A stretch of 64,000 nucleotides of DNA from an uncultured Spirochaetota bacterium (GTDB lineage Bacteria; Spirochaetota; Spirochaetia; SZUA-6; CAVTHK01), in the NCBI GenBank assembly GCA_963734495.1, contig CAVTHK010000013.1, positions 480,001 through 544,000 on the forward strand, given 5' to 3'. The translations under genes were made by a program, and so were the position numbers. The notes under the pieces are model-generated. The model saw nothing but the letters and a program-made list of their open reading frames with translations. It had not been told where the DNA came from and ran no database searches. The first letter of the stretch is position 1; each line of letters begins with the position of its first letter. Positions 43,535 to 61,426 of the stretch are shown here, piece by piece.

Positions 43535-45746
43535 TTGAAGCGCGACGTCCGCACCGCCTCGCTGGCGGCCGCAGCCGCGCTGGCTGCAGCCGGCGGCGTG
43601 CTCTGTCTCTCCTAGTCGCCCACTTGCGGAGCGGCGAGATGGACCTGGGGTTCCTGGCCGTGCCGGGGGCCTTGCTCTTCACGGCCTTCCAGTGGGCCGC
43701 GTTCTTCGTGCCGGCCTACCTGCTCGCGTGCGCCTGGATCGTCGGCGCGCGCTCCTTTGACGGCGGCGAGCTGCTCGCGCTGACGCTCACGGTGGTGCCG
43801 TTCCTCACGGCCGCCCTCGCGCTGAAGACGCTGTTCGAGGACGCCGACGCCGCGGCTCCCGTCACGCGGGTGACGCTGGCGCTCTTCGGCCGCTTTCCGG
43901 GGGTGCTGTTCCTCGGCGGGCTCATGACGCTGGAGCTGCTCGCGATCCACCGCGTGCGCGAGGCGCTGGCCTCCCGCGCGGGACGCCGTCCGCGGCCGCC
44001 CGGCCGCGCCCCGCTCCCGAGCCCGAAGCCGGCGACTACCAGGACGTGGAGCCGCTGGAGGAGGCGCCCGACGCGCCGGCCGCCTCCGCGCCGGCGTCCG
44101 AGCCCCCGCCCCCTCCGCAGCGCCGCAGGACGGCATTCGTGCCGGCGAGCCTGCTGCCGCCCGACGCCGTGGTCGCCGAGGCGAGCGCCGCGCCCGTCTC
44201 CCCTGCCGAGGCGGTGGCCGAGCCCGTTCCCGAGCCGGTCCCCGAACTCGAGGCAGCCGCCCCCGCCGGCGAACCCGGCGCGGCCGCGACGCCCGCGCTC
44301 CCTCCCCCGCGCAAAGGCAAGCGCCCCGGGCACTACTCCGTGCCCATCAAGAACATCCTGGTCGAGCGGCCCCAGGCCGACGCGACCACGGTCGACAAGG
44401 AGATCCGCGACGCCGGCGCGATCCTGATGCGCACCCTCGAGGAGTTCAGCATCGCCGCCGAGCTCACCGGGATCCGCAAGGGCCCGGTCATCACGATGTT
44501 CGAGATCCTCCCGTCGCCCGGAGTCAAGCTCTCAAGGATCGTGAACCTGGCCGACAACATCGCCCTCCGCCTCGCGGCGCCGCGCGTGCGCATCGTGGCG
44601 CCCATACCCGGCAAGCACGCCGTCGGCATCGAGGTCCCGAACAAGCGGCGGTCCATCGTCTCGTTCCGCGACATCATCTCCCTCGACCTGTTCCGCGACA
44701 GCCACTACGAGATCCCGCTGGCCATCGGCGAGGGCATCTCCGGGGAGGCGCACATCGTCGACCTGGTGCAGATGCCCCACCTGCTGATCGCCGGCGCCAC
44801 CGGCAGCGGCAAGAGCGTGTGCGTCAACTCGATCATCGCCAGCATCCTCTACCGCAAGACCCCGAACGAGGTGAAGCTTCTCCTCATCGACCCCAAGATC
44901 GTGGAGCTCAAGCTCTACAACGACATCCCCCACCTGCTCACCCCGGTCATCACCGAGCCCAAGCGCGCCTACCGGGCGCTTCAGTACTGCATCTACGAGA
45001 TGGAGCGCCGCTACTCCCTGCTCGACGCCCTCGGGGTGCGGGACATCCGGTCGTGCAACCGAAAGATCAAGAAGAACCGGATCGCCCAGACGCCGCTTCC
45101 GTACATCGTCATCGTCGTCGACGAGTTCGCCGACCTCATGGCGACCATCGGCAGGGAGATGGAGTCGACGCTCGCGCGCCTGGCCGCCATGTCCCGGGCG
45201 GTCGGGATCCACCTCGTCCTCGCCACGCAGCGGCCTTCGGTCGACGTCATCACGGGCCTGATCAAGGCCAACATCCCCTCGCGCATCGCCTTCATGGTCG
45301 CCAGCAAGATCGACTCGCGGATCATCATCGACACCGTCGGCGCGGACAAGCTCCTCGGGCAGGGCGACATGCTTTTTACCCCCGCCTGGGACCCCGTGCC
45401 CGTGCGCATCCAGGGCGCCTATCTCGCCGAGGAGGAGATCGAGGCGCTCACCGCATACGTCAAGACGCTGGGCGAGCCGGAGTACATCGACGAAGCGATG
45501 TTCCTCGACGACGAGGAAGAGGACGTCCCGTTCGACGCGGCCGACGACCCGCTGATGGACAAGGCGCTGGAGATCGTCGTCACCGCGGGCAAGGCTTCGG
45601 CCTCCTACCTGCAGAGGCGCCTGCAGATCGGCTACAACCGCGCGGCCCGCCTCGTCGAGTCGATGGAGCAGCAGGGCATCGTCGGCCCCGCGCAGGGCAG
45701 CAAGCCGCGCGAGATCCTGCACGTGCCCGAGCGCTCGCGCGACTGA
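43535..45746 (+). CDS. ftsK: DNA translocase FtsK (frameshifts in the N-terminal region)
   Basis: N-terminal TM helices, Pro/Ala linker, PHLLIAGATGSGKS, DEFADLM, ATQRPSVDV, gamma domain LQIGYNRAARL. Confidence 0.93.
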
Positions 45747-45775
45747 CCGCCGCCCGGGGCGCGCGGACCTGCACG

Positions 45776-45831
45776 GAAACGCTTCGTGCAACGGCCCCCG
45801 GAACGTTCGCGAAACGGCCCCCCGATAGGCT
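45776..45831 (+). promoter_or_regulatory. SARP-type repeat promoter 1 (GNAT)
   Basis: ACG cores at 45779/45791/45803/45814, 8 nt after the last heptamer, TAGGCT at 45826. Confidence 0.72.
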
Positions 45832-45852
45832 GGATCACGTCGGAGGCAGGCC

Positions 45853-46422
45853 GTGATCAAGGGCACCAAGGTTCATCTGCGGCTGATAGAGGAAGGCGAC
45901 CTCGAGGTCCTGCATCGATTCCTGTGCGACGTCGGGAACCGGGGGCCGTATTTCCCCGGCACGATCCGCTCCCTGACCGAGCTCCGCGCGCGTTTCCTCC
46001 AGGACGGGTTCTGGTCCCCGAGGGAGGGGACCATGGTCATTGTCGACCAGGGCGGGCGCGTCGTCGGGTGGATCCTCTTCTTCATGCCTCATTCGGAGAA
46101 CGACGCCTACGAGGCAGCCTACGTCATCTTCGACGAGCAGAGCAGGAACAAAGGCTACGCTACCGAGGCGCTGTCGCTCTTCGTCCGGTTCCTGTTCCGG
46201 ACCACGGCCGCGCACAGGATCGAGCTGAACATCGCCACCGACAACGTCCCGTCGAGGCGGGTGGCCGAGAAGTGCGGCTTCGTGTGCGAGGGCGTCTCGC
46301 GGGAGGTGTGGTTCTCCAGCGCCCTCGGAAGGCGGCTCGACGGCGCACGGTACGCAATCCTCAGGAACGAAGTGGACTACTCATCCTGGGCCCTCCCGGG
46401 GCAGGGCGGTAGCGGCAGCTGA
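45853..46422 (+). CDS. GNAT (RimJ/RimL-like) N-acetyltransferase
   Basis: RNKGYATEAL, NVPSRRVAEKCGFVCEG; GGAGG RBS. Confidence 0.88.
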   Translation: MIKGTKVHLRLIEEGDLEVLHRFLCDVGNRGPYFPGTIRSLTELRARFLQDGFWSPREGTMVIVDQGGRVVGWILFFMPHSENDAYEAAYVIFDEQSRNKGYATEALSLFVRFLFRTTAAHRIELNIATDNVPSRRVAEKCGFVCEGVSREVWFSSALGRRLDGARYAILRNEVDYSSWALPGQGGSGS

Positions 46423-46573
46423 GCGAACCCGCGCGCGTCCCGGGCAGCGGAGGCAACCCTCGTTTGACTCCCCAATGGACAATGGGCCTGCCACGACGTC
46501 TACCACATCGTGCAGATCAGGAACATGGGGTTGAGTAACCTGCCTCAGTGAGGCGTTCGGGCCGCGGCCCGGG

Positions 46574-47737
46574 CTAATTCCCGTCGCCCGCCATCCTCGA
46601 GATACAGGCTCGATAATGCAGGTAGTTGGCCCAGCTCACGTCGGGCGGCACCTGGTGGTCCACCATCGGCACGTAGCCGCCGCGCTCGAGCATGGCCGGC
46701 ACCTGGCGCGCGAGCTCCGCGTCGATCGCATCGCGGCCCCGCGCGAGGGCCTTCTTGTCTATCCCTCCCAGAATCTGCAGGCGGGGGAAATCACGGCGGA
46801 TCTGCACCACGTCCATCCCCGCCTGGGCCTCGAAGGGGTAGAGCCCGGTGACGCCGCCTTCCATCATCGGGCGGATCAGCTTGCGGCAATCGCCGTCCGT
46901 GTCCACGAGCACGACCTTGACGCCGTGACTGCGCGCGACCTCGGTGACGCGGCGGTAGGCGGGCAGGAGGAACTCACGGAACATCTCGGGGCTGATCAGC
47001 GGCCCGTTCTTGTACGACATGTCCTCCCAGATGTGGACGCAGTCGACCTTGACCCGGGACAGCACCCGGTCGTACAGCGCGACCCAGAGCGCGCCGAGCC
47101 GGTCGATGAGCGCGCGCACCAGCTCGGGCCTCTCGATGAACGCGACCATGAGCTCGACCTCGCCCATGAGAAAGCGCGGGGCGCCGAAGAACCCGCAGGG
47201 GTAGCCGCCAAAGGCCACGACCCCGTCGTAGGCGTTGAGCTCGGCGACCGCCGATTCCCAGTCGGGAGGGAAGCGGCCGGGCGCGTCGGGATCGAGCCGC
47301 TCGGCCGCGACGCGCTCGAGGTCCTCCATCGTCGAGACGGGCCACGACAGGTAGTGCGGGATGCTGTTGCGCGCCCTGGGCATGAGCTTCACGATGCCGG
47401 TGTCGTCGCGGATCACCACCTGGTCGCCGCGGTCCTCGAGGATCTTCTCCTCGAAGGGCGGCCAGAGGTAGAGCTGCACCGGGACGCGGAGCGTCGGCTT
47501 GTCCAGGCCGGACGCCTCGAGCGCGTCCAGGCAGAAGCGGTCGCCCGGCGCGATCGGCGTGGCGGGCCCGCGCACCGTATCGCCCCACGCGGGGTCGCCC
47601 TGGACGCCGTGGCGGCGCGGCATGCCTTCGGAGTACCAGCGCTCGATCGTGCCGCCCCAGAAGCCCTGCTCCCAGAACGGCACCCGGTCCGCCGGCTCGA
47701 AGCCCATCGCCGCATGAAAGCGCTCCTTGTCGGTCAT
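46574..47737 (-). CDS. Uroporphyrinogen decarboxylase-like (MtaA/CmuA) protein
   Basis: DRVPFWE, WEDMSYKNGPLISP, DTDGD, GGIDK, GGYVPMVDHQVPPDVS. Confidence 0.88.
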   Translation of the reverse strand: MTDKERFHAAMGFEPADRVPFWEQGFWGGTIERWYSEGMPRRHGVQGDPAWGDTVRGPATPIAPGDRFCLDALEASGLDKPTLRVPVQLYLWPPFEEKILEDRGDQVVIRDDTGIVKLMPRARNSIPHYLSWPVSTMEDLERVAAERLDPDAPGRFPPDWESAVAELNAYDGVVAFGGYPCGFFGAPRFLMGEVELMVAFIERPELVRALIDRLGALWVALYDRVLSRVKVDCVHIWEDMSYKNGPLISPEMFREFLLPAYRRVTEVARSHGVKVVLVDTDGDCRKLIRPMMEGGVTGLYPFEAQAGMDVVQIRRDFPRLQILGGIDKKALARGRDAIDAELARQVPAMLERGGYVPMVDHQVPPDVSWANYLHYRACISRMAGDGN

Positions 47738-47927
47738 CGACGCCCCTTTCGCTGGTCCACGGGGCGATCTTGGCACGGCGGAGCGGGCCTCGGCAACACT
47801 GCGCGCGTTGACGTGGGGAACAGCTGAGGGTGCCTCCTCATTCAGAAAAACCGGAAATTCCGTCCCTTGCATTCGGGTTTTCCGGAGGAACTGATGGCGG
47901 TGAGCCCTCACCCCCGGAAACAGGGGC

Positions 47928-50900
47928 TCAGGTGGGCTTCGGATGCGGCGCCCGGCCGCCTGAGGGGCGCCGCCGCGGCGACGCCGACGGGGAGCGACGC
48001 CGCGACGGCGCGGCGGCGCCTTCAGCGAGTGCGACGTCGACGGCCTCCTCGTACGACGTCTCGAGCCCGCGGTGCCACGCGTCGTCAGCCTGGTACTGCG
48101 CGAACGCCTCTTTCTCGTCCGGGTCGCAGTCGCTGCGCGTGCTCACGTCGCCGCCCACCGCGGCGTCGCGCAGCGCCTTGAAAGCGCCGAGCAGTCTCGC
48201 CGCGATCGCGTGCCTCCCCAGGGCGCGGGCGACCATGCCCAGCCTCCCGAGGACGTGGACCGCGCCGCCGCGGTCGCCGAGTCTCACGAAGAGCGAGAGG
48301 CTTTCGCGCAAGTGAGCCGCCCCGCGCTTCGTCTCGCCTCCCAGGAAGAGGGCGCGGCCCAGCCCTTCGAACGTCCACGCAGTCATCCACCGGTCGCCGA
48401 GCTCCTGGAACGCCCGCAGCGCGCCCTCGTAGCGCGAGCAGGCCTCGGCGTGCTCGCCCGCCTCGCGCAGGAAGTCGCCGAGGCTATTGAGAGCATGCGC
48501 GGTACCCCAGAGGTCGCCGCACCGCTGCGAGATGCGCACCGCCTCCTCGAGCCCCTCCCGCGGGCTGCGGCCGACCGGCCTGCCGCCCGTGGTGCCGTAG
48601 GCCCAGATGAGCGAGGTCGCCAGGCGCGCCGGGCCGCCGATCTCGCGGGCGATGGCCACCGCCTCCTCGCAGAGCCGCGTGCCCTCGTCGTCGCTGCCGA
48701 GCCACCGCTCCGCCACGCCGAGGTCCGCGAGCAGCGCGGCCTCCACGCCGCGCGCGCCGAGCCTGCGCGCGAGCGCCAGGCCCTCGGCGTAGAGCGCGTG
48801 GGCCCGTGCCCAGTCGCCCTGAACAAAGACCAGCCAGCCCAGCGCGTCCAGCGCGCGGGCGCGCTCCTCGCCGAGCGAAGCGCTCTGCGGCAGCGCCAGG
48901 GCCTCCTCGAGCCAGCGCGCGCCCAGTTCGAAGTCGCCGCGCCTGTGGTGGAACCAGCGCAGCGCCACGGCCAGGCGCAGGGCTTCGGTCGCCTTCCCGC
49001 GGCGGAGGAGCCAGGACATCGCCCGGCCGCAGTTGTGCTCTTCCTGCACGAGGCGGGCGACCCAGCGCATCTGCTCGGGGCCGTGGAGCTGCGGCTCGGC
49101 CTGCTCGACGAGGCTCAGGAAGAAGGCGGCGTGCCGGGCGCCGGCCGTCTCCGCCTCGCCGCCCGCCTCCAGGCGCTCGCGGGCGTACTCGAGGATCGTC
49201 TCGAGCATCCGCAACCGCGTCTCGCCGCCGGATTCGTCGCGGTGCAACAGGCTGTGGTCCGCGAGCGAGGAGAGCCCAGCGAGAACGTCGGCGTCCTCGG
49301 GGCCGCCGCGGCAGACCCGCTCGGCCGCGTCGACCGAGGCGCCGCCCGCGAACACGGCAAACCGCGCGAACAGCTTCTTCTCACCGTCGTCGAGCAGGTC
49401 GTAGCTCCAGTCCAGCGTGCGGCGCAGCGTTTGCTGCCGCGCGGGCGCGCCGGGCAGCGGCCCGGCGGCGAGGTCCAGGCAGTCGGCGAGCCTTCGGGCG
49501 AGGTCCTGCGGCGTGAGGAGCCGCAGCCTCGGGGCCGCCAGCTCGATCGCCAGCGGAAGCCCGTCGAGCCGCGCGCAGATCTCGCCCAGGGCGGCCGCAT
49601 TCTCCGCGGTCACGACAAAGTCCGGCCGCGCCGTGGCAGCGCGCTCGGCGAGCAGGCGCACGCTCTCGCAGCGGGTGACCTGCAGGGCGTCCGCCCCGGC
49701 GGCCGCCTGCTCCACGGAGAGCGGCGGCACCGGGAACTCCTTCGCGGCCGCAAGATGGAGGGACCGGCGGCTCGTGACGATCGCCCTCGCGTGAAGCGCA
49801 GAGGCGAGCAGCTGCTCGACCTGCGCGCTCGCGGCCGCCACGTGCTCGAAGTTGTCGAGGAGCAGCAGGACCCTGCGCCGCCTCAGGTGATCCGCGAGCA
49901 TGGCGTCCACCGGCCGCGCCGCGCCGACAGGCCGGCGGACCCCGAGGGCCGCGGCGATGGCCGGCACGACTTCGGCCGGCTCGCGGAGGGGAGCCAGATC
50001 AATGAAGAAGGTACCCTCGCCGAATCTTCCCGCCGCCTCCCTGGCGGCCTCGACCGCGAGGCGCGTCTTGCCGGTGCCTCCGGGGCCCGTGAGCGTGAGG
50101 ATCCGGGTGTCGCCGAGGGCGAGCAGCTCGCGCAGGTGCGCCAGCTCCTTCTCGCGGCCGACGAGCTGCGTCGCCGGCTCGGGCAGGTTGTTCGGCGGCG
50201 GCGGCGCGGCCGGGACGGGCGGCGTCGAGCGCGGCGAGGCGCGTGCCGGGGCGCGCGAGGGGACGCCTCGCGCGGGGGCCGCGCTCTGCAGGCCGGCGGC
50301 GAGCTCCGCGCCATGGGCGCCGCGGATCGCGTCGGCGAGGCGCTCCGTCTCGGCCGACGGCTCCTCGTTCAGCTCGCGCGCCAGGATCGATCGACACTGC
50401 TCGTACTGCCTGAGCGCCGCCGCCCGCCGCCCCGCCCTGCCGTAGAGCCGCATGAGGCTGCAGTGCACGCGCTCGTCGAGCGGGTCGAGGGCCAGCCAGC
50501 GGCGGGCATTCTCGATGGCGCGATCGAGCTGCCCCGAGCTGCCGCAGGCGTCGACGAGCCGCGCGAGGACCTCTCCGTATTCGCGGCGGAGGCGCTCCTG
50601 CTCGAAGAACTGCCACTCTTCGAAGGGCGGGCTGTCCCTGAGGCGGAACTCCGAGAGAAAGTCGCCCCGGTACAGATCGGCGGCCCGGGCGAGCGCCTCG
50701 CCTGCGTGCGACGCCGCGTCCGGCGCTTGGCCGTCGCAGCGGGCCAGCCGCCGGAACTCGTGCACGTCAACCAGGAGCCCGCGCCGCGGGCTGAGCGCCA
50801 CGTCGGCGCGATCCGCGTTGAGCCACTCGTCGCCGACGAGGCCCTTGAGGAACGACAGCGTCTGGCGGAAGTCCGCCCGGGCGCGCTCCGCGGGCTGCTC

Positions 50901-51059
50901 GGGGAACAGCAGCGCCGTGAGCGCCTCCCGGCCGTGGGGCCGGGCCGTGACGGCGAGGTAGGCGAGGAGAGCCGCGACCTTCCGCCTCTGCAGGCGCAGC
51001 GGCGCGCCCTTCAGCTCGAAGCGCGGTGGTCCGAGGACGAGCACCGAGAGAGCCGGCAC
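47928..51059 (-). CDS. AfsR/SARP-like regulator (wHTH-BTAD, NB-ARC-like ATPase, TPR), copy 1
   Basis: RKVAALLAYLAV, YRGDFL, LDPLDE (BTAD); GPGGTGKTRLA, LLDNFEH, LDGLPLAIELAA; TPR-like C-terminus. Confidence 0.92.
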   Translation of the reverse strand: MPALSVLVLGPPRFELKGAPLRLQRRKVAALLAYLAVTARPHGREALTALLFPEQPAERARADFRQTLSFLKGLVGDEWLNADRADVALSPRRGLLVDVHEFRRLARCDGQAPDAASHAGEALARAADLYRGDFLSEFRLRDSPPFEEWQFFEQERLRREYGEVLARLVDACGSSGQLDRAIENARRWLALDPLDERVHCSLMRLYGRAGRRAAALRQYEQCRSILARELNEEPSAETERLADAIRGAHGAELAAGLQSAAPARGVPSRAPARASPRSTPPVPAAPPPPNNLPEPATQLVGREKELAHLRELLALGDTRILTLTGPGGTGKTRLAVEAAREAAGRFGEGTFFIDLAPLREPAEVVPAIAAALGVRRPVGAARPVDAMLADHLRRRRVLLLLDNFEHVAAASAQVEQLLASALHARAIVTSRRSLHLAAAKEFPVPPLSVEQAAAGADALQVTRCESVRLLAERAATARPDFVVTAENAAALGEICARLDGLPLAIELAAPRLRLLTPQDLARRLADCLDLAAGPLPGAPARQQTLRRTLDWSYDLLDDGEKKLFARFAVFAGGASVDAAERVCRGGPEDADVLAGLSSLADHSLLHRDESGGETRLRMLETILEYARERLEAGGEAETAGARHAAFFLSLVEQAEPQLHGPEQMRWVARLVQEEHNCGRAMSWLLRRGKATEALRLAVALRWFHHRRGDFELGARWLEEALALPQSASLGEERARALDALGWLVFVQGDWARAHALYAEGLALARRLGARGVEAALLADLGVAERWLGSDDEGTRLCEEAVAIAREIGGPARLATSLIWAYGTTGGRPVGRSPREGLEEAVRISQRCGDLWGTAHALNSLGDFLREAGEHAEACSRYEGALRAFQELGDRWMTAWTFEGLGRALFLGGETKRGAAHLRESLSLFVRLGDRGGAVHVLGRLGMVARALGRHAIAARLLGAFKALRDAAVGGDVSTRSDCDPDEKEAFAQYQADDAWHRGLETSYEEAVDVALAEGAAAPSRRRSPSASPRRRPSGGRAPHPKPT

Positions 51060-51195
51060 TTCTTGTCCCGAAGGCCGCGGCAGCGGCCTCGCCCCGTCGC
51101 GGCTGGCGACCGGGGGGTCGCGAGCGGCGGCGCCGCAGCCTTCTTCATTTACTCTATCCGACTTTCCCTCCGCGAAAAAGCGCAAAAACAGCTTT

Positions 51196-51251
51196 GTAAC
51201 GCTGCGTGGAACGCCCGGAGGGACGATCCCGTCACGGTCGTCGCGTAGGCT
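51196..51251 (+). promoter_or_regulatory. SARP-type repeat promoter 2 (NTF2-like pair)
   Basis: ACG cores at 51199/51211/51223/51234, 8 nt, TAGGCT at 51246. Confidence 0.7.
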
Positions 51252-51281
51252 GGGGCAAAGTCAGAGGACGAGGAGGAAGCA

Positions 51282-51761
51282 ATGAGAAGGCTCGTGCTCG
51301 TGTTGGGGCTCGCCACCGCGGCAGGGCTGCTGCTGTGCGGCTGCGCGACAGTCAAGGCGGCGGACGCGGATGGTTTCAGGGCGGCAGCCGAGGAAATCTA
51401 CGCGAAGTACGCGGGCTCGGTGACTTCCGGCGACCAGGACCGCTGGCTCACCAACTGGGACGAGAACGGCATCCAGATGAGGCCGGACGGGCAGTCGGTC
51501 GTCGGCAAGAAGGCCATCGAGGAGCGCGTCCGCAGCCGGTGGCCGACGATGACGATGGCCATGACGATCAAGGTCGAAGAGGCGACGGCAGCAGGTGACT
51601 GGGGATATGCGAAGGGGACCTACGTACAGACGATCATGCCCAAGGCGGGAGGGCCGGTGACCAACGTGGACGGCAAGTGGCTCGACATCCTCAAGCGCCA
51701 GCCTGACGGCACCTGGAAGCTGTACATAGACTGCTTCAATTCGAACGTGCCGCCGAAATAG
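51282..51761 (+). CDS. NTF2/SnoaL-like (DUF4440) lipoprotein
   Basis: Lipobox-like LLCGC; GDWGYAKGTY, GKWLDILKRQPDGTWK; strong RBS. Confidence 0.85.
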   Translation: MRRLVLVLGLATAAGLLLCGCATVKAADADGFRAAAEEIYAKYAGSVTSGDQDRWLTNWDENGIQMRPDGQSVVGKKAIEERVRSRWPTMTMAMTIKVEEATAAGDWGYAKGTYVQTIMPKAGGPVTNVDGKWLDILKRQPDGTWKLYIDCFNSNVPPK

Positions 51762-51777
51762 GCGGGGGAGGAAGGAA

Positions 51778-52245
51778 ATGAAGAGGAGCGTCGTGCTTGT
51801 GTCTCTGCTTGCGTTTACGCTGATCGCGGCCGCGGCGGCGACGGCTCAGACGCGGATGATCGGACCCAGGGCGGACTGCGATGCGATCGCGAAGATCATG
51901 GAGGACTATGCGCTCGCCGGCACCCGCAGCGACCCGGAGCTGCGCCTTTCGCTCTGGGATCGCGAGGGGATCGCGTACAAGGGGGACCTGAGCGTGTTCG
52001 ACATGGCGGGGGTGGAGAAGAGGGTCCGCGCCGGCTTCGCAGCCACCACCATGAACATGTGGATCAAGATCGAGGAGATCTTCGTGTCCGGCGACCTCGC
52101 CTACGCGCTCGGGCCGTACGGGAGCAGGCAGGGGCCCAAGGCCGGCGGCCCCATGATCGTCGTCGACGGCAGGTACCTGACGGTCCTCAGGCGGCAGCCC
52201 GACGGGTCCTGGAAGATCTACCGCGACTTTTCGGCCACCAAGTAG
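51778..52245 (+). CDS. NTF2/SnoaL-like (DUF4440) exported protein
   Basis: Signal peptide; GDLAYALGPY, GRYLTVLRRQPDGSWKI; paralogue of the upstream gene. Confidence 0.85.
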   Translation: MKRSVVLVSLLAFTLIAAAAATAQTRMIGPRADCDAIAKIMEDYALAGTRSDPELRLSLWDREGIAYKGDLSVFDMAGVEKRVRAGFAATTMNMWIKIEEIFVSGDLAYALGPYGSRQGPKAGGPMIVVDGRYLTVLRRQPDGSWKIYRDFSATK

Positions 52246-52266
52246 GAAAGCCCGGCACGCCGGGCA

Positions 52267-55200
52267 TCAGCGGGCGCGGGGCGGCCCGGCAGCAGGGCGG
52301 GGCCGCCTCGCTCCGCCGCCGGCGCCGCCGCGCAGGGCGTAGGCGATCGCGTTGTCGAGCGTCATCGTGAGCCCGCGGGCCCACTCGGCGGCGAAGCGGG
52401 CCCGGTAGCGGGCGGAGGCGGCCGCCGTCACGGCTCCGCCTCGGCGCGCGGCCTCGGGGCCGAGCGCCGCTTCGCCGAGGGCCGACGACGCCGCCATCAG
52501 GCGCGCGGCGCGCGCGTCGCGGCCGGCCCCGCGCGCGGCGAGCGCGAGCCGGCCGACCATGTAGACCGAGCTTGCCCGGTCGCCGAGGAGCGAGAAGAGG
52601 GAGAGCGCCTCCTTCATGTTCGCCTCGGCGCGCCGGAAGTCGCGGCCCCGGAGCGCCGCGGACCCCAGCCCTTCGAGCGTCCAGGCGACCATCCACGGGT
52701 CCTCGACCTCGCGGAACCCCGCGAGCGCCGCCTCATAGACGGGGCGCGCACCCCGGTGATCGCCTGTCTCGCGCAGGAGATCGCCGAGCCCGTTGAGCGC
52801 ATGCGCCTCGCCCCACCTGAAGCCCGCCTCGCGCGAGATCCGCGCCGCCTCCTCGAGCTCGGCGCGCGGCGAGCGGCCTTCGAAGCGGCCTCCCGTGGTG
52901 GCGTACGCCGAGATGAGCGCGCGCGCGAGGCACACGGGATCGCCGACCTCCCGCGCGACCGCCACCGCCTGCTTGCCGTGCGCGGTGCCCGCGGTGCGCT
53001 CGCCGAGCCAGCGCTCGACGACTCCGAGGTAGGCCAGCGCCGACGCCTCGACGCTTCGCTGCGAGAGCTCGCGCGCCTCGGCGAGGCTCCGTTCGTAGAG
53101 GGCCCGCGCCCGGGTCCAGTCGCCCTGGACAAAGGCGATCCAGCCGAGAGCGTCGAGCGCCCGCGCGTGCGCGCGCGACGGAGCTGCCGGCTGCTCCAGC
53201 GACCGCTCGAGGATGCCGCGCCCTTCGCTGAACCGGCCGCCGCGATACCAGTACCACCTGAGCGCGGCCGCGAGTCTCAGCGCATCTTCTCCGCGCCCCG
53301 CTGCCAGGAACCGCTCCACCGCGGCCCGCAGGTTGGCGTTCTCGACCTCGAGGCGCGCGAGCCACACGGCATGCTCGGGCCCGTCCAGCCCCGCCTCGCC
53401 GGTCTCGGCCAGGCGCAGGTAGTACGCGGCGTGCCGGTCGGCGACGGCCGCCGCTTCGCCGCTTTCCCGCAGCCGCAGGCGGGCATATTCCCCGATCGTC
53501 TCGAGCATTCGCAGGCGGCTTTCGCCCGATGCCTCCTCGCGCCGAAGGAGGTTCTTCTCGGCGAGGGAGACGAGCCCCTCCAGGACGTCGGCGCCGCCCG
53601 CGTCGCCGCACACCTCTTCGGCGGCCCGCGGCGCGAAGCCGCCCGCGAACACGGCGAGACGGGCGAACAGCCGCTTCTCGCTCCCGTCGAGGAGGTCGTA
53701 GCTCCACTCGATGGCGCCGCGCAGCGTGCGCTGCCGCGCCGGCAGATCGGGGGGCCCCGCGCCGAGCAGCCGGAGGCGATCGGAAAGGCGGCTCGCCAGG
53801 TCCTGGGGCGAGAGGACCCGCAGCCGCGAAGCTGCCAGCTCGATCGCGAGGGGAAGGCCGTCGAGCCCGGCGCAGATCTCCTCCACCGCCGCCGCGTTGG
53901 AGTCGGTCAGCGTGAAGTCGGGCCTCGCCGTCACGGCCCGTTCCACCAGCAGCCGCACGGCCGCATAGCCGGCCAGGTGGTCCGCTGAGCGCGACGCCGC
54001 CGGATCGGGGACGCGCAGCGGGGGCACGGGGTACTCCCTCGCGTCCCGGATGTGCAGCGACTCGCGGCTGGTCACCAGCGCCTCGAGGCCGGGGCAGGCA
54101 GCCGCGAGCGCGGCGACCCGGCCGGCAGCCTCTGCCACGTGCTCGAAGTTGTCGAGCACCAGCAGCACCTTCCTGCGGCCGAGGGTCGCGGCCAGCAGGT
54201 CGAAGAGCGGCACGGCCTGGCCGCGCGATTCCCTCACGTCCAGCGTCGCGGCGATCGCGGGCACCACCTGGGCGGGCTCCTCGAGCGCGGACAGGTCGAC
54301 GAAGAAGACGCCGTCGGGAAACCGGCCGGCGAGGTCCTCGGCCGCCTTCACCGCCAGCGCCGTCTTGCCCGTGCCGCCGGGGCCGGTCAGCGTCAGCACG
54401 CGCCCGTCCCCGCGGCCGATGAGGTCGAGGACCTCCGCGAGCTCCTTCTCCCTGCCCACGAGAGCCGCGGGCCCCGCGGGAAGGGTGGCGGGGCGCGGCG
54501 ACGGCTCGCGCGCCGCCGCCGGCCGCGGCTCGCGCGCGGGCGCCGGCCCTCCGCCGGCCGCGCGACGCCGCTGGATCGCCTCGCGCAGCGCCTCGGTCCG
54601 CTCGTCAGGCTGCTCGCCGAGCTCCTTCGCGAGGACCGCGCGGCACACCTCGTACTGCCGAAGCGCCGCCGCTCTCTGTCCCGTGCCGCAGTAGAGGCGC
54701 ATCAGGAGCCGGTGGGCCGCTTCGTCGATCGGGTCGAGGGCGAGCGCGCTGCGCGCGTACTCGACGGCGGCCTCAGGCCTCCCGCTCCCCTCCTGCAGGC
54801 GGACGAGCCGCTCGAGCACTGACGCGTACCGCTTGCGCAGCGTCTCCCGTTCGAAGAGCTGCCAGTCCTCGAAGGCCGGGCTGTCCCTGAGGAAGAAGCC
54901 TGAAAGAAGGTCACCGCGGTACAGCCGTGCCGCCTCCGTGAGCGCGGGCTCGTCGCCCGCGGCCAGCGTGCGGAAGCGCCGCACGTCGACGGCGAGCCCG
55001 CGCCGGTCCGGCAGGGCCACACCGCCGCGGTCGATCTCGAGCCAGCCCTCGCCGATGGCGCGCAGCAGGAACGACAGCGTGTGGCGGAAGTCCGCGCCGG
55101 AACGCTCGCGCCCCAGCCCGGGGTAGAGCAGCTCCGCCAGCGCGTCGCGGTCGCGGGGCTCGCCGGTCACGGCGAGGTATGCGAGCAGCGCGAGCACCTT

Positions 55201-55278
55201 GCGCCTCGGCATGCGGATCGAGGCGCCGTCCCGCTCGAACCTCGGCGGCCCGAGCAGCTGCAGCGAGAGCGTGGCCAC
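52267..55278 (-). CDS. AfsR/SARP-like regulator (wHTH-BTAD, NB-ARC-like ATPase, TPR), copy 2
   Basis: Same motif set as copy 1 (GPGGTGKT, LDNFEH, GLPLAIELAA). Confidence 0.92.
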   Translation of the reverse strand: MATLSLQLLGPPRFERDGASIRMPRRKVLALLAYLAVTGEPRDRDALAELLYPGLGRERSGADFRHTLSFLLRAIGEGWLEIDRGGVALPDRRGLAVDVRRFRTLAAGDEPALTEAARLYRGDLLSGFFLRDSPAFEDWQLFERETLRKRYASVLERLVRLQEGSGRPEAAVEYARSALALDPIDEAAHRLLMRLYCGTGQRAAALRQYEVCRAVLAKELGEQPDERTEALREAIQRRRAAGGGPAPAREPRPAAAREPSPRPATLPAGPAALVGREKELAEVLDLIGRGDGRVLTLTGPGGTGKTALAVKAAEDLAGRFPDGVFFVDLSALEEPAQVVPAIAATLDVRESRGQAVPLFDLLAATLGRRKVLLVLDNFEHVAEAAGRVAALAAACPGLEALVTSRESLHIRDAREYPVPPLRVPDPAASRSADHLAGYAAVRLLVERAVTARPDFTLTDSNAAAVEEICAGLDGLPLAIELAASRLRVLSPQDLASRLSDRLRLLGAGPPDLPARQRTLRGAIEWSYDLLDGSEKRLFARLAVFAGGFAPRAAEEVCGDAGGADVLEGLVSLAEKNLLRREEASGESRLRMLETIGEYARLRLRESGEAAAVADRHAAYYLRLAETGEAGLDGPEHAVWLARLEVENANLRAAVERFLAAGRGEDALRLAAALRWYWYRGGRFSEGRGILERSLEQPAAPSRAHARALDALGWIAFVQGDWTRARALYERSLAEARELSQRSVEASALAYLGVVERWLGERTAGTAHGKQAVAVAREVGDPVCLARALISAYATTGGRFEGRSPRAELEEAARISREAGFRWGEAHALNGLGDLLRETGDHRGARPVYEAALAGFREVEDPWMVAWTLEGLGSAALRGRDFRRAEANMKEALSLFSLLGDRASSVYMVGRLALAARGAGRDARAARLMAASSALGEAALGPEAARRGGAVTAAASARYRARFAAEWARGLTMTLDNAIAYALRGGAGGGARRPRPAAGPPRAR

Positions 55279-55331
55279 GCGGCTCGCCTCCGGGCCGCCG
55301 CGCGGGGCCGGGGTGCGCGGCGGCGGCCTTC

Positions 55332-55460
55332 AATATGATGCCCCTTCATTCTACGCGAAAACGCGGTGAAACGCATTCCGAAACGCGGCGGCAACGCCGG
55401 CGCAACGGCGGACGCCTATCCTTGGGTCGCCGGTGGGGACACCGGATGCGAGGAGGTGCA
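55332..55460. repeat. ~125-bp duplicated divergent promoter region, copy 1 (includes SARP-type promoter 3)
   Basis: Highly similar to 56159-56285; ACG cores at 55371/55383/55394/55405, 8 nt, TATCCT at 55417. Confidence 0.85.
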
Positions 55461-55461
55461 G

Positions 55462-56247
55462 ATGCGCGGCCAGGTTGTCGAGTTGCGCGTGAGCACCGTG
55501 CAAGGAGGCGCAGCGGCGGCGCCGCCGTCCACGAGGCGGCTCGGCGATGGGGCGCTGCTCGCGGCGAAGGTCGGGGTCCTCTGCTGCGGCGCGCTCGCGC
55601 TGCTCGCCGCCCACCTGAGCCCGCCGCTGGTGAGGCGCGTCCACAACCACGCGCGCGGCGTCTCTATGCGGCTTCCGGCGGGGTGGACCGGCTACGATCG
55701 GTTTGAGCAGGGCGTGGTGGCTTTCAAGCGCGACGGCCGATTCAATGCGTCGGTCACGGTGTGGCGTTTTTCGTGGTGTGAGTTCGACAGCGCCCGCGAG
55801 ACGCCCGGAACGCCGGTCCCCGCACGTCAGCTGCCGACGGATCTCGTACAAGCCGCGGCCGAGGTGGCGGCTTGCCTGGGGTTCCCAGACGCAACGGGGA
55901 GGGCGCACATGGAAGGCGCCGTCGTCGGCGGGAGGCCTGCCCTGGTGCTTGTCGCGCCCCGCTACTCGACCGAGCCATGGCGCGCGATCGCGGTGGCTGC
56001 CGGCGAAGACCTGCTCTTTCTCGACCTGCGTGCGGCGAGCGAGGCGGATCTCCGGGCGGTCTGGCGTTGTTGGAAAGCGATGATACGGTCGGTTCGGGTG
56101 ACGAACCGGCCGCGGCCAATGGTCGAGCGTTTCGGCTGCGAAGACGGCTGCGGCCTTGAATATGTTGCTCCTTCATTCTACGCGAAAGTGCCGCGCAGCG
56201 CATTCCGAAACGCCTGCGGCAACGCTGGCGCAACGGCGGACGCCTAG
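55462..56247 (+). CDS. Uncharacterised membrane-anchored protein, paralogue A
   Basis: GAGGAGG RBS; RLGDGALLAAK, hydrophobic helix, GVSMRLPAGW, GEDLLFLDL..SEADLRAVW..WKAMIRSVRVT. Confidence 0.75.
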   Translation: MRGQVVELRVSTVQGGAAAAPPSTRRLGDGALLAAKVGVLCCGALALLAAHLSPPLVRRVHNHARGVSMRLPAGWTGYDRFEQGVVAFKRDGRFNASVTVWRFSWCEFDSARETPGTPVPARQLPTDLVQAAAEVAACLGFPDATGRAHMEGAVVGGRPALVLVAPRYSTEPWRAIAVAAGEDLLFLDLRAASEADLRAVWRCWKAMIRSVRVTNRPRPMVERFGCEDGCGLEYVAPSFYAKVPRSAFRNACGNAGATADA

Positions 56248-56285
56248 GCTTGGGTCGCCGGTGGGGACGCCGGAGGAGGCGCAGC
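56159..56285. repeat. ~125-bp duplicated promoter region, copy 2 (includes SARP-type promoter 4)
   Basis: ACG cores at 56210/56222/56233, 8 nt, TAGGCT at 56245; overlaps the 3' end of paralogue A. Confidence 0.85.
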
Positions 56286-56990
56286 GTGGGGCTCAAGGCG
56301 ATGACAGTCGGACTGCAGGTCTGTTCCTTGCGCCTGCAACCGGAGGTGGAGCCGAAGCCGGGCACGAGCCGACTCGGTGACGGCGCCCTGCTGGCGGCCA
56401 AGGCGGCCGCGCTCACGGCCGCGGCGCTCGCGCTGCTCGCGTCATACCTGGGGCTCCCGCTGCCCCGCGTCCTGCGCAATCAGACCCTCGGCCTGTCCAT
56501 CAGCTGCCCACCGGGGTGGGAAGACTGCCGGCTCCCCAAAGGATTGGCCATGGGAGCCTTCAAGAGCGACGGCCGCCTGTCCGCGTGCGTGACGCTGTGG
56601 CGCTTTTCGTGGCCCGAGATAGGCGCCGTCGCGTTCGAGTCCGGAAGGAGTCTCTCCGCGCACGGAGTGCAGCCGGACCTTTTCGCCGCACTGAGCGAGC
56701 AAGCGGCCTGGCTGGGGTTCGGGGACTGCACGGGCCCGGTCGACACCATGACACTCGACGGCAGGCCGGCCCTCATGCTCACTGCGCAGGCGCCCTCCGG
56801 GAAGTCGCGGAGTGCGCTTGTGGTCGCGTTGGGCGAAGATCTCGTGTCGCTCCACCTCTTCGCGTCGAGCGAGGCTGATCTCCGCGCGGTGTGGCCGCTG
56901 TGGAAGTCGATGATCCGCTCGGTCCGTGTGACGCGACGGTCGCGGCCTTCCGCCAAGGGTTCCGACGACGGCAAGCGCGCAGGGTGGTGA
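56286..56990 (+). CDS. Uncharacterised membrane-anchored protein, paralogue B
   Basis: GGAGGAGG then GTG; RLGDGALLAAK, GLSISCPPGW, DGRPAL, GEDLVSLHL..SEADLRAVWPLWKSMIRSVRVT. Confidence 0.75.
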   Translation: MGLKAMTVGLQVCSLRLQPEVEPKPGTSRLGDGALLAAKAAALTAAALALLASYLGLPLPRVLRNQTLGLSISCPPGWEDCRLPKGLAMGAFKSDGRLSACVTLWRFSWPEIGAVAFESGRSLSAHGVQPDLFAALSEQAAWLGFGDCTGPVDTMTLDGRPALMLTAQAPSGKSRSALVVALGEDLVSLHLFASSEADLRAVWPLWKSMIRSVRVTRRSRPSAKGSDDGKRAGW

Positions 56991-57039
56991 TCTTCCGGCG
57001 GTTTGACGGCCTTCTTCTTTCGTCTGTAGGTTTTCGGGC

Positions 57040-57933
57040 ATGACGGCACTCGGGCCCGCTGTGGAGCGCCGCCCGGACATGTCGGGGCGGGTGTGCCTCG
57101 TCACAGGAGGCACCTCCGGCGTCGGACGCGCGATGGCGGGCGGGCTCTCGAAGCTCGGCGCCCGCGTCGTCATCCTCGCGCGGGACCGGGAGCGCGGCCG
57201 CGCCGCCGCCGTGGAAATGACCGCGTCGTCCGGCCACGCGGTCGAGGTGGTCGTCGGCGACCTCGCGGACCTGCGCTCCATCGGCCGCGCCGCCGCGGAT
57301 TTCGGCGCGCGGTGGGACCGCCTCGACGTCCTCGCGCACGCCGCGGGCATCCTCTGCTGGAACCGGCAGATGAGCGCCGACGGCTACGAGCTCACGTTCG
57401 CGGTCAACGTTCTCGGGCCGGCCCTCCTGACCCGGCTGATGCTGCCCCTGCTCGAGCGCAGCGCGCCCGCGCGGATCACCGCGGCGTGCGGCGGCCTGGC
57501 GACGCTCGCGCACGCCAGGCTCGATCTCGACGACCTCCCCTACCGCGCGGCGCGGTTCGCCCCGCTCTCGACGGCGCTGCAGGCGATGCTCGCCCGCGTC
57601 CTCTACTGCGCGGAGCTCGCGCGGAAGCTCCAGGGACGCGGCATCGCGGTCAACGCGTTCTACCCGGGGCTCGTGCGCTCGCGGCTCGATCGCGGGCTGC
57701 CGTGGCCCCTGCGCGTCCCCGTGCGGCTCGTCCAGCCCTTTCTCAAGGCGGGCTCCGCTTCGGCGGTGCGAGCCGCCGCGGACCCCTCCCTCGCCGCCGT
57801 CACAGGCGCTTTCCTGGCGGGGCGGCGCGTGCTCGAGCTCCGCAGCCGCCGTGTGACGCCGGAGGATTCGCAGCGCCTCTGGTCGCTGATCGAGAGGCTG
57901 CTCGACGAGCGGATGACGCCCGGAACCGCGTGA
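57040..57933 (+). CDS. Short-chain dehydrogenase/reductase (retinol dehydrogenase-like)
   Basis: VTGGTSGVG, DLADLRSI, AAG, FAVNVLGP, YPGLVRS; TTGACG-18-TAGGTT just upstream. Confidence 0.88.
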   Translation: MTALGPAVERRPDMSGRVCLVTGGTSGVGRAMAGGLSKLGARVVILARDRERGRAAAVEMTASSGHAVEVVVGDLADLRSIGRAAADFGARWDRLDVLAHAAGILCWNRQMSADGYELTFAVNVLGPALLTRLMLPLLERSAPARITAACGGLATLAHARLDLDDLPYRAARFAPLSTALQAMLARVLYCAELARKLQGRGIAVNAFYPGLVRSRLDRGLPWPLRVPVRLVQPFLKAGSASAVRAAADPSLAAVTGAFLAGRRVLELRSRRVTPEDSQRLWSLIERLLDERMTPGTA

Positions 57934-57987
57934 AACGCTTTCTGTAACGTCTACGGACACGATCCCGGGACGGCGCGCGCCTAACCT
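57932..57987 (+). promoter_or_regulatory. SARP-type repeat promoter 5 (paralogue C)
   Basis: ACG cores at 57935/57947/57959/57970, 8 nt, TAACCT at 57982. Confidence 0.72.
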
Positions 57988-58013
57988 GTCAGCGACAGTG
58001 CGAGGAGGCGTGT

Positions 58014-58706
58014 ATGCCGTTCGGACGAGGACTGGTCCCGGCTGCGGAAGCCTGCTCCCTGCGGCGGGATGACCCGACGCCGCCCGCGCCACGCGCGGGG
58101 CGGCTCAGCGATGGCGCTCTGCTGGGCGCAAAGGCGGGCGCGTTGTGCCTCGCCTGCCTCGTGCTGCTGCCCGGGCAGCTCAACCCGGACCGGGCCGGCA
58201 TCCTGTGCAGCCAGGAGGCAGGGCTCTCGATGCGGGTGCCGCGCGGATGGCACCGCTTCGCGCTGCCTCACGCGCTGGCAGCCGTGAAACCCGACGGCGC
58301 CGGCGGCCCGCGCGCGTCCGTGCTGCTCTGGCGCCCGCCGTACGCCGAGCCAGGCGCTGCCGACGGCAGCGAGGACGCGGTGGTCTCCGCAGGGTGGCCG
58401 AGAGCCGATCCGGCGGCCACGCTGGCTGAGGCGGCTGACTGCCTCGGGCTGGACTGGTCCGGGCAGGCGCGGCTGGAGACCGACACCATCGCCGACAGGC
58501 CGGCCCTGGTGCTCGCCGCACCGCTCCGCGCCAGCCGGTGCTGGCGCGCCCTCGCTGTTGCCGCGGGCGAGGATCTGCTGTTTGTCGAGCTCGACGTGTC
58601 GAGCGAACAAGACCTTCGTGCTGTCTGGCGTCAGTGGAAAGCGATGCTCCGCTCTGTGCGGATCACGGGGTCCGACCGCCCGAGTGTGGCAGGGGGCGCC
58701 GACTGA
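58014..58706 (+). CDS. Uncharacterised membrane-anchored protein, paralogue C
   Basis: GAGGAGG RBS; RLSDGALLGAK, GLSMRVPRGW, DRPALVL, GEDLLFVEL..SEQDLRAVWRQWKAMLRSVRIT. Confidence 0.75.
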   Translation: MPFGRGLVPAAEACSLRRDDPTPPAPRAGRLSDGALLGAKAGALCLACLVLLPGQLNPDRAGILCSQEAGLSMRVPRGWHRFALPHALAAVKPDGAGGPRASVLLWRPPYAEPGAADGSEDAVVSAGWPRADPAATLAEAADCLGLDWSGQARLETDTIADRPALVLAAPLRASRCWRALAVAAGEDLLFVELDVSSEQDLRAVWRQWKAMLRSVRITGSDRPSVAGGAD

Positions 58707-58934
58707 CGACTCAGTCCGCCGCCATCGGTTTCCCGATGTGAGCGGACTTCCAGCCTTTGGAGGCGTGTCGCCTCTTCTTGACGCACCGTCATATCTCCGA
58801 AACGTGTTGGTGACGCCGGCTGACTACAGCTTGTCGGGACACTCAGGCAACGATTCGGGCCTGGGGCGACACGGAGCGTCGGGCTTCCACGCGCTCTTGC
58901 TTCTCGATCGTGGCCGAGGAACCCGGGATACCTC

Positions 58935-58968
58935 TTGCATCTGATACTGAACATATGTATAGTATCAG
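58935..58968 (+). promoter_or_regulatory. Promoter with an overlapping palindromic operator, leaderless
   Basis: TTGCAT-17-TATAGT, ATG 6 nt later; CTGATACT-N12-AGTATCAG inverted repeat spans the spacer and -10. Confidence 0.75.
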
Positions 58969-58969
58969 T

Positions 58970-60287: not shown

Positions 60288-61426
60288 TCAGTCCGCCGCC
60301 ATCGGAAGGTCCACCGGCTTTCCGCCCAGCTCCGAAGACTTGCGGATCGCGAGGATGATCTCCTGGTCGAGCCTTCCCTGGGCCGGCGCCGTAGGTGGGC
60401 TCGCCGCCGCTGCGCACCGCGTCCACGAGGCTCATGATGCAGCCGGCCACGCCGATCTCGTCGTCGTGCCACTGGGGGTTCGAGCCCTTCTCCTCGGTGC
60501 AGAAGGGGTTCTTCCACTCGAAGAGCTTCCCGCCCGCCGTGTGGCGCGGATCGAGACCAGCGCGCCGCCGTCGCACGCGCTCCCAGACGCGATCGAGCGT
60601 GATGAACTGCGGCTGCTCGCCGTCGGGGGTGAGGATCGAGAGCTTCTCCTCGAAGTCGAGCCCGTAAGCCGACGCTGATCCCCATGCCCTTTTCCGCGAG
60701 GAAGCGGCTGCTGCGCCACCAACGGAGCGCTGAGTCGTAGCCCACGCTGGTCCAGTGGAAGATGCCGAGGCGGCCGCCTTCGAACTCGACCATCCCGTGC
60801 TCCTGCGTCTCCTTGCGCGGCCCGTTCGTCCCGGCGATGAGCGACCAGTGCGGGGCGAGGTCGTAGCCGTGCACCGACCCGACGACCCGCACGGGCTTCG
60901 CGTCGAAGCCGAGGTAGCTGCGCATCACGCTCACGCCGTGGTAGCCGTGGCCCGAGAAGTCGTTGAACGAGGAGTAGACGCGGCCAAAGACGCCCGCGCG
61001 TATCAGCGCCAGCTTGATCTGCTCGAGCGGCCTGCGGTGGAACTGCTCCGAGACTTCGATCTTGAGCTTCTGCCTGCGGGCCGACGCGATGATGGCGTCG
61101 GCCTCGGCGAGCTTCGGCGCGATCGGCGTCTCGAGCAGCACGTTCAGGCCGTGCTCGACCGCGAGCAGGCCGACCTGCCCGTTGGAGGCGTGGGTGACCG
61201 CGACCACGCCGATCGCGGGCGAAGTCTCGCGCACCAGGCGCGAGAGGTCGGTGTACCACGGGATGCCGAGCTTCTCGCCCACCCTGCGGGCAGGCTCGGG
61301 GCTGCGGTTCCAGACGGAGACCAGCTCCACGTGCTTCGAGAGGCCCCGGAGCAGCGGAGCGTACATGTAGGCGGAGCGCTTGCCCGCGCCCACGAGCGCG
61401 ACGCGCACTCGCTGGTTCTGGCTCAT
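60288..61426 (-). CDS. Gfo/Idh/MocA-family oxidoreductase (frameshifted)
   Basis: VALVGAGKR, VLLETPIA; C-terminus DQEIILAIRKSSELGGKPVDLPMAAD* ends inside the right 21-bp repeat. Confidence 0.85.

Follow-up and report, generated by a model that had tools for sequence, protein, structure and literature searches.

Candidate SARP-type promoters with direct-repeat arrays beside two AfsR-like STAND regulators in an uncultured Spirochaetota bacterium

Repeat promoters and paralogous regulators

We analyzed a 64,000-nucleotide stretch of high-GC DNA (about 70% G+C) from an uncultured Spirochaetota bacterium (assembly GCA_963734495.1, contig CAVTHK010000013.1, positions 480,001 to 544,000), referred to here as the window. 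Five arrays of short direct repeats lie just upstream of genes in a region that also encodes two paralogous, AfsR-like regulators, Reg1 and Reg2. We consider it likely that the five sites are activator-dependent SARP-type promoters on which these neighboring regulators act, because the last repeat stands 8 bp from the -10 element, the two proximal repeats are 11 bp apart in 5/5 promoters, and no -35 element was found. Gene order between 45.7 and 58.7 kb is the end of ftsK, a GNAT acetyltransferase gene, a URO-D/MtaA-like gene, Reg1, two NTF2-like genes, Reg2, paralogues A and B of an unnamed membrane-anchored family, a short-chain dehydrogenase (SDR) gene, and paralogue C. The promoters, the regulators, and the candidate output genes, in window coordinates, are as follows.

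45776..45831, + strand: promoter P1 (GNAT), GAAACGC / GCAACGG / GGAACGT / GAAACGG; ACG starts 45779/45791/45803/45814 (spacing 12-12-11); -10 TAGGCT at 45826-45831
45853..46422, + strand: GNAT acetyltransferase (Acetyltransf_3, E 1.4e-22), GTG start after GGAGG
47928..51059, - strand: Reg1, SARP domain (putative winged helix-turn-helix plus BTAD), NB-ARC, TPR
51196..51251, + strand: promoter P2 (NTF2 pair), GTAACGC / GGAACGC / GGGACGA / GTCACGG; ACG starts 51199/51211/51223/51234 (spacing 12-12-11); -10 TAGGCT at 51246-51251
51282..51761, + strand: NTF2a, NTF2-like protein (DUF4440/SnoaL) with a lipoprotein-type signal peptide
51778..52245, + strand: NTF2b, second NTF2-like protein (DUF4440) with a Sec-type signal peptide
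52267..55278, - strand: Reg2, paralogue of Reg1 with the same domains
55358..55422, + strand: promoter A; ACG starts 55371/55383/55394/55405 (spacing 12-11-11) with an extra one upstream at 55361; -10 TATCCT at 55417-55422
55462..56247, + strand: paralogue A, membrane-anchored, unnamed family
56195..56250, + strand: promoter B, degenerate GCAGCGC, then GAAACGC / GCAACGC / GCAACGG; ACG starts 56210/56222/56233, degenerate GCAGCG at 56198 (spacing 12-11, or 12-12-11 counting the degenerate repeat); -10 TAGGCT at 56245-56250
56286..56990, + strand: paralogue B, GTG start after GGAGGAGG
57040..57933, + strand: SDR, 49 nt after paralogue B
57932..57987, + strand: promoter C, GAAACGC / GTAACGT / GACACGA / GGGACGG; ACG starts 57935/57947/57959/57970 (spacing 12-12-11); -10 TAACCT at 57982-57987
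58014..58706, + strand: paralogue C

A preliminary description of this DNA, made from the letters alone, had placed heptamers with an ACG core upstream of the GNAT gene, the NTF2-like pair, and paralogues A, B, and C, and all five sites could be read directly. Each promoter carries three to five heptamers, all direct and on one strand. G occupies position -3 of ACG in 20/20 repeats and A occupies position -1 in 16/20, and the repeat unit is better written GNAACG(C/G). The described ending of the arrays, a last heptamer of the form nnnACGG followed by exactly 8 nt and then TAGGCT, TATCCT, or TAACCT, is found in all five promoters, and a start codon with a GGAGG-type ribosome site lies 15 to 35 nt after each -10. 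The absence of a recognizable -35 was likewise borne out, in that 45600-58800 contains no sigma-70-type -35/-10 pair.

The arrangement is far from background frequency in the window. The pattern ACG-N8-ACGG-N8-TANNCT, sought on both strands, has five matches in the 64 kb against a mean of 0.00 in 100 dinucleotide shuffles; all five are on the + strand just upstream of genes, and the strict pattern has no further site elsewhere in the window. Arrays of four ACG cores at 11/12-bp spacing occur at four sites (0.13 in 30 Markov controls). An unbiased k-mer test on four independent 56-nt regions returned AACG as the top 4-mer (12 occurrences versus 0.53 expected, p = 6.5e-13, 92 k-mers). The window pattern was defined after the sites had been seen, and the independent test is that in other genomes, given below.

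The preliminary description called the promoters identically phased and counted five of them. The phasing is identical in four (including B when its degenerate repeat is counted) and is 1 nt off in A. The count stands for sites, of which only four are independent, since promoters A and B are products of one tandem duplication. Two blocks of this duplication are recognizable (55318-55386 versus 56145-56213, 86% identical, and 55388-55446 versus 56216-56274, 93% identical), and the 1-nt offset between them accounts for the 11-versus-12 spacing difference between A and B. A coding stretch of the duplication is only 75% identical, compared with the 86 to 93% of the promoter; the promoter has thus been kept better than the gene, which suggests that it is under selection. 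The four independent promoters (P1, P2, A, and C) are alike at the -10 and in the cores of their heptamers and differ in the spacers, with 28 to 42 of 68 positions identical pairwise.

Promoters and genes are tightly interlocked. As the preliminary description noted, two of the promoters are divergent from regulator genes, P2 from Reg1 and promoter A from Reg2. The open reading frame (ORF) of paralogue A traverses promoter B and ends inside the -10 of B, whose first 3 nt serve as the TAG stop codon; the first heptamer of promoter C overlaps the SDR stop codon. The C-terminal tail of paralogue A (last ~35 codons) is missing from B, from C, and from the 87%-identical relative P0004, and it corresponds to the translated duplicated promoter region of B. 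The leaders downstream of promoters A and B (55430-55446 and 56258-56274, + strand) share a 6-bp hairpin with the stem CCGGUG, which compares favorably with shuffled sequences in A (z -2.5) and not in B (z 0.05).

Reg1 and Reg2 are 54% identical (543/1008) and have the composition that the preliminary description assigned to them, with BTAD (PF03704; E 1.2e-24 in Reg1 and 4.9e-21 in Reg2), NB-ARC, AAA_22, and AAA_16 matches and C-terminal TPR_12 and other TPR models. The Walker A (GPGGTGKT) and Walker B (LLLLDN/LLVLDN) motifs are intact; Reg1 has GPGGTGKT and LLLLDN, and its most likely start is the GTG at 51059. Residues 4-618 of Reg2 align with residues 25-630 of AfsR (PDB 8k60; E 1.4e-15), a span that covers the DNA-binding, BTAD, and NOD regions. 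The NCBIfam AfsR model (NF053617) matches both proteins from model position 28, Reg1 at 100.6 bits and Reg2 at 89.2 bits. Identification of either as an AfsR orthologue was rejected (89 to 101 bits versus an equivalog cut-off of 1430), and with scores so far under the cut-off Reg1 and Reg2 are homologues of AfsR and not orthologues. The recognition helix is nearly identical in the two proteins, and both should therefore read the same heptamer.

A further departure from AfsR lies in the HD motif, where both regulators have M-L-E in place of F-H603-D604. AfsR H603-D604 align with Reg2 L592-E593, which puts the Reg2 M-L-E at residues 591-593 (window about 53500-53508, - strand). Among 72 aligned regulators, 65 have the motif His and five have Leu in its place, namely Reg1, Reg2, one other, and the regulators of two related loci, L001 and L002, discussed below. 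This motif is reported as highly conserved in 3,853 AfsR-like proteins, and its mutation makes AfsR autoactive (preprint 10.64898/2026.09.02.748808).

The putative own-promoter regions of Reg1 and Reg2 (- strand, about 51140-51160 and 55340-55356) have in common a TAGAGT/TAGAAT hexamer followed by an ATGAAG-containing stretch. By eye, the extra upstream heptamers of promoter A extend into the expected own-promoter region of Reg2, an overlap that could couple target activation to Reg2 expression.

The box in related loci

For the independent test, relatives were collected from one genome per GTDB species by a search with an alignment of the two SARP domains. The sample comprises 80 loci, each taken with as much as 10 kb of flanking sequence on either side (1.08 Mb), and the window's own genome is not among them. 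The relatives are 31 to 51% identical to the regulators and come from metagenome-assembled genomes (MAGs) labeled Chloroflexota (most), Actinomycetota, Thermoanaerobaculia, Deltaproteobacteria, and Spirochaetales, along with a few isolates (Naasia, Microbacterium). Domain annotation of 16 sampled relatives (E <= 1e-7) found BTAD in 16, an ATPase in 12, and TPR in 13. No synteny with these loci was seen when 25 other window proteins were compared with all 80 by tblastn.

The spaced box accompanies the regulators. ACG-N8-ACG-N9-TANNNT has 21 matches in the 1.08 Mb, 19 of them within 400 bp upstream of the regulator, a region that makes up 3% of bases. Eighteen of these 19 are on the divergent strand, reading away from the regulator, and the two matches outside this set of 19 (L052 and L062) are also upstream, directly before ORFs. 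The strict box is present on the divergent strand within 400 bp upstream in 18/80 loci against 0.05 in 300 first-order Markov controls, and a relaxed box is present on that strand in 35/80 against 1.5 in controls, which supports the earlier local-regulon reading. Geometry is sharply preferred when the spaced model is varied. In an offset scan from 4 to 14, N9 was found in 18 loci and any other offset in at most 2; in a period scan from 7 to 17, 11 bp was found in 18 loci and other periods in at most 1; and among 64 trinucleotides used as the core, ACG was found in 18 loci, followed by GCG in 4. A test that presupposes no core gave the same period, with an exact 5-mer recurring at period 11 in 60/80 upstream regions (31.6 in controls, maximum 40), most commonly CCACG, CACGT, and ACGTT. 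Other periods were at about control level in this test except 9 (45 versus a control maximum of 36) and, marginally, 12 (38 versus 36).

The base preceding the core also varies with the regulator. Where a relative has Thr at the position of Reg2 T67, A precedes ACG in 20/32 repeats, and where it has Ala, C does so in 22/34; the window regulators have Thr, in keeping with the predominance of A at -1 in the five promoters. This covariation of helix and box agrees with direct readout and is confounded by common ancestry.

The closest relative of Reg2 is the regulator of locus L002, 51% identical over residues 1-908. The gene divergent from it encodes a 159-residue DUF4440 lipoprotein that is 44% identical to NTF2a, with C-terminal residues alike, and its promoter reads GAAACG, 5 nt, GAAACG, 9 nt, TAGGCT. 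At L001, whose regulator is 47% identical, two copies of GAAGCG with the spacing of L002 stand before TAGTAT (by eye). Actinomycetota relatives have a common GTAACG...GGAACG pair 11 bp apart, which precedes a GAF-SpoIIE-HATPase gene in 8 of 12 scanned divergent ORFs. The divergent product, a GAF-SpoIIE(PP2C)-HATPase_c_2 protein of the partner-switching type, is encoded at L011, L012, L017, L050, L063, L066, L076, and L077, and a second GTAACG copy lies near the regulator's own start in Actinomycetota relatives. In Chloroflexota, the box is typically CCACGTT-like, and the first gene after it encodes a conserved protein of ~70 residues without a Pfam family, often followed by a very large secreted protein with SdrD_B, PKD, or DUF11 domains. 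Further candidate targets encode an S41 peptidase, OsmC, EthD, and a WXG100-OmpA protein. The small protein is encoded at the following positions.

L042:9608-9829, - strand: ~70-residue protein
L051:5702-5920, - strand: ~70-residue protein
L057:1876-2094, - strand: ~70-residue protein
L060:9640-9855, - strand: ~70-residue protein
L061:9637-9867, - strand: ~70-residue protein
L062:9474-9683, - strand: ~70-residue protein
L019:1367-1780, - strand: ~70-residue protein
L052:3261-3506, - strand: ~70-residue protein

Proposed mechanism and competing explanations

The geometry that the preliminary description had likened to SARP promoters agrees, for the proximal pair, with the published rule of direct repeats whose 3′ copy lies 8 bp from the -10 (PMC10936776), with a period of 11 bp (PMC7040171). 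In the AfsR initiation complex, each repeat holds one of a row of adjacent protomers, the downstream protomer lies near the polymerase, and the activator takes over from a -35 as the contact for sigma region 4 (PMC10936776). The promoter anatomy, the regulator domain make-up, and the joint occurrence of regulator and box in other genomes are observed here; from them we infer binding, activation rather than repression, start sites, the assignment of regulators to promoters, and coupling to a signal. In each promoter the place of the -35 is taken by three to five direct GNAACG(C/G) heptamers, the last of which ends 8 bp before TANNCT. The predicted OmpR-type winged helix of Reg1 and/or Reg2 would bind the heptamers head to tail, one per protomer. 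The proximal 11-bp pair would be occupied as AfsR occupies the afs box and, once bound, would present another surface on which sigma region 4 and the core of RNA polymerase could dock ("sigma adaptation"), while the two distal 12-bp-spaced heptamers might be filled by further protomers of the STAND oligomer. The NB-ARC ATPase and TPR regions would couple promoter control to a signal via oligomerization.

The predicted outputs are the GNAT, a two-gene operon for exported NTF2-like proteins, the three membrane-anchored paralogues, and probably the SDR. The first three had been named in the preliminary description; the SDR has no repeat box of its own, probably rides on the transcript from promoter B, and has to be added. 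An envelope-directed response fits better than detoxification, because the outputs and most of the relatives' targets are exported, membrane, or signaling proteins. The preliminary description had offered both; its envelope half fits the lipoprotein, secreted, and membrane-anchored outputs, and the GNAT keeps detoxification as a weaker candidate.

Several observations weigh against SARP-type activation by Reg1 and Reg2. In P1, P2, C, and B, the distal repeats are spaced by 12 bp and so depart from the 11/22-bp SARP rule, and the 6/6 relatives with three ACG repeats are spaced 11-11, not 12. There are frame-shifted genes in the window, and a single-base difference in spacing could in principle be an assembly error; such an error is unlikely here, since the 12-bp spacers of P2 and C contain no homopolymer runs. 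The relaxed ACG box is not present on the divergent strand in 45/80 related loci. These loci share common ancestry, and among the 18 strict ones L051 and L057 are 98% alike; median identity over the first 110 residues of the regulators at the strict loci is 39%. Those 110 residues are not matched by Pfam Trans_reg_C in either window regulator, even at E 10, so that the winged helix rests on the AfsR alignment, in which the AfsR base-contact residues T88 and R92 are H/Q and F in Reg1/Reg2. Finally, the scan took in 64 kb and the contig is at least 577 kb long, so that the regulon can be called "local" only provisionally.

Of the explanations that compete with this reading, the one with the best prospects, though still improbable, is that the regulators do occupy the arrays but as repressors, or as dual regulators, that occlude the promoter, the genes coming on when the regulators leave. 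The arrays do occupy the place where a -35 would be, and the extra heptamers of promoter A reach, by eye, the presumed divergent promoter of Reg2. Against occlusion, no -35/-10 pair able to work unaided was found in 45600-58800, the position of the proximal pair is exactly that of the repeats in SARP promoters that depend on an activator, and BTAD is an activation domain family. About equally improbable, and if anything slightly more so, is that the boxes serve another OmpR/PhoB-type protein whose gene lies elsewhere, for instance a PhoP-like response regulator, with the STAND regulators as mere neighbors. The OmpR/PhoB class likewise reads 11-bp direct repeats. At afsS, the direct repeats bound by AfsR overlap those bound by PhoP, so such boxes can be shared (PMC10972967). 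However, the box is found with STAND regulators of this family in several phyla, on the divergent strand and at a constant offset, and its core covaries with their recognition helix, a linkage that a factor encoded elsewhere would not give.

We regard it as very unlikely that the repeats are relics of local duplication, copied with their genes and devoid of sequence-specific function. Promoters A and B do derive from one duplication, and A/B/C and the two regulators are paralogous; but P1, P2, A, and C resemble one another at the -10 and the GNAACG positions and not in the spacers, the GNAT and NTF2 genes are unrelated to A/B/C, and equal geometry recurs in unrelated genomes. SARP-type activation by the neighboring regulators remains our preferred reading.

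A broader proposal is more doubtful, and we offer it tentatively. SARP-domain STAND regulators may constitute an old cross-phylum sigma-adaptation class whose conserved ACG box most often serves a divergently oriented gene for a signaling or exported protein, together with a four-repeat M-L-E/D subgroup with an envelope regulon. The subgroup (Reg1, Reg2, and the L001 and L002 regulators) may have lost the NLR-type motif His and may read 12-12-11 arrays. Such arrays might be read by a tetramer or by a Reg1/Reg2 hetero-oligomer, in which separate dimers would occupy the distal AACGC pair and the proximal pair, and the consequence may be a multi-promoter envelope regulon switched differently from AfsR.

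Among characterized regulators, the nearest comparison is AfsR of Streptomyces coelicolor (PDB 8k60, 8jke), in which an OmpR-type DNA-binding region, assigned in Reg1 and Reg2 from the AfsR alignment, is followed as here by BTAD, NB-ARC/NOD, and TPR regions. The present promoters resemble the afs box, a set of direct repeats spaced by one turn that overlaps a poor -35 and whose 3′ copy lies 8 bp from the -10 (PMC10936776). The differences from AfsR and its box are a GNAACG core rather than the afs repeat, other base-contact residues, four repeats with a distal spacing of 12 bp where the afs box has two at 11, M-L-E replacing F-H-D, and five clustered candidate targets for exported or membrane proteins. 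The proposed mechanism is nevertheless the known SARP one, extending an existing kind to a non-antibiotic, multi-promoter setting; the departures from AfsR are the distal 12-bp spacing, the M-L-E, and the non-antibiotic outputs. Pathway-specific large SARPs and SARP-LALs (PolY, RslR3, PimR, SanG) similarly carry extra ATPase or TPR domains, and three heptamer repeats with 4-nt gaps are described for several SARPs and PimR (PMC10972967). Those four sit in and control biosynthetic clusters, whereas Pfam annotation of ORFs in the 64-kb window found no polyketide synthase, nonribosomal peptide synthetase, terpene, or other cluster, in agreement with the preliminary description. Pfam content of the window is instead primary metabolism, glycosidases, transport, and FtsK.

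Location outside a biosynthetic cluster is shared with the "ectopic" AfsR-like regulators of Actinomycetota, which make up 58% of 3,200 AfsR-like regulators and whose targets are given as unknown (10.64898/2026.09.02.748808). Unlike these, Reg1 and Reg2 lack the motif His and have candidate targets and a box, identified here. A further difference from the Actinomycetota set is that relatives of Reg1 and Reg2 reach MAGs labeled Chloroflexota, Thermoanaerobaculia, and Spirochaetales. EmbR of Mycobacterium tuberculosis controls cell-envelope arabinan genes. It too is a SARP-domain regulator outside antibiotic pathways (PDB 2FEZ), structurally like the AfsR SARP domain (PMC10936776). By description, EmbR differs in having an FHA domain and no NB-ARC or TPR. 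Sigma adaptation by PafBC, a comparison drawn in the AfsR paper, is alike in that an activator replaces the missing -35 contact (PMC10936776). PafBC belongs to the unrelated WYL family and its box is placed differently.

SARPs have been described as exclusive to actinomycetes and as activators of secondary metabolism (PMC7040171). Contrary to that statement, the regulator family with this box extends, judging from its genomic distribution, beyond actinomycetes, and box and regulator travel together in MAGs labeled Chloroflexota, Actinomycetota, Thermoanaerobaculia, and Spirochaetales. Our literature search, with subscription journals outside its scope, found no paper that deals with regulators or boxes of the SARP type outside actinomycetes, whether in Chloroflexota or in another phylum. 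The regulator pair gains a concrete set of five candidate target promoters and a defined box, and the box offers a sequence-only rule for predicting targets of hundreds of uncharacterized STAND transcription factors. The window further provides a natural variant without the HD-motif His and a naturally occurring array of four repeats with which to study the placement of STAND oligomers on DNA.

Output families and neighboring genes

Within the NTF2-like pair, NTF2b is 44% identical to NTF2a and starts 16 nt downstream of it. The GNAT shows a weak, sub-threshold likeness to AAC(6′) and Rim acetyltransferases. Paralogues A, B, and C are mutually 44 to 48% identical and share an architecture of an N-terminal tail, a single hydrophobic helix, and a domain of ~150 residues. 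No Pfam family was matched across 25 members of this family, and a PDB sequence search to E 10 and an NCBIfam search gave no match. Two non-self relatives were found in a word-indexed set of 5.8 billion sequences, and an exhaustive search returned 38 representatives at E <= 0.001.

The preliminary description omitted a gene behind Reg1, which lies 16 nt downstream of the regulator as the ORF is drawn and is probably cotranscribed with it.

46574..47911, - strand: URO-D / MtaA-CmuA-like protein (E 1.6e-14)

PADLOC reported no defense system; in this search the regulators drew generic TPR and weak ATPase matches and the outputs drew none. An anti-phage STAND system (Avs and similar) was considered and set aside, the known defense-system models being unmatched in PADLOC. 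An Rfam search of 43000-60000 gave a single chance-level match, and no known RNA element therefore accounts for the intergenic regions.

Several genes of the window are split or match only half of a model, among them those for a GH42 beta-galactosidase, a GH116 glycosidase, FtsK, and a Memo-like protein, which suggests pseudogenes or assembly indel errors. The ORFs concerned are as follows.

61485-63491, + strand: split or half-model gene
61936-63252, + strand: split or half-model gene
40088-41647, + strand: split or half-model gene
40183-42252, + strand: split or half-model gene
43441-44427, + strand: split or half-model gene
44046-45746, + strand: split or half-model gene
41972-43420, - strand: split or half-model gene

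Beyond the repeat promoters, a gene for a DUF222-type HNH endonuclease directly follows paralogue C (58910-60235, + strand). It is succeeded by a Gfo/Idh/MocA oxidoreductase gene, apparently the N-terminal part only (60432-61426, - strand), and a Phd/YefM-type antitoxin gene begins at the window end (63596-64000, + strand).

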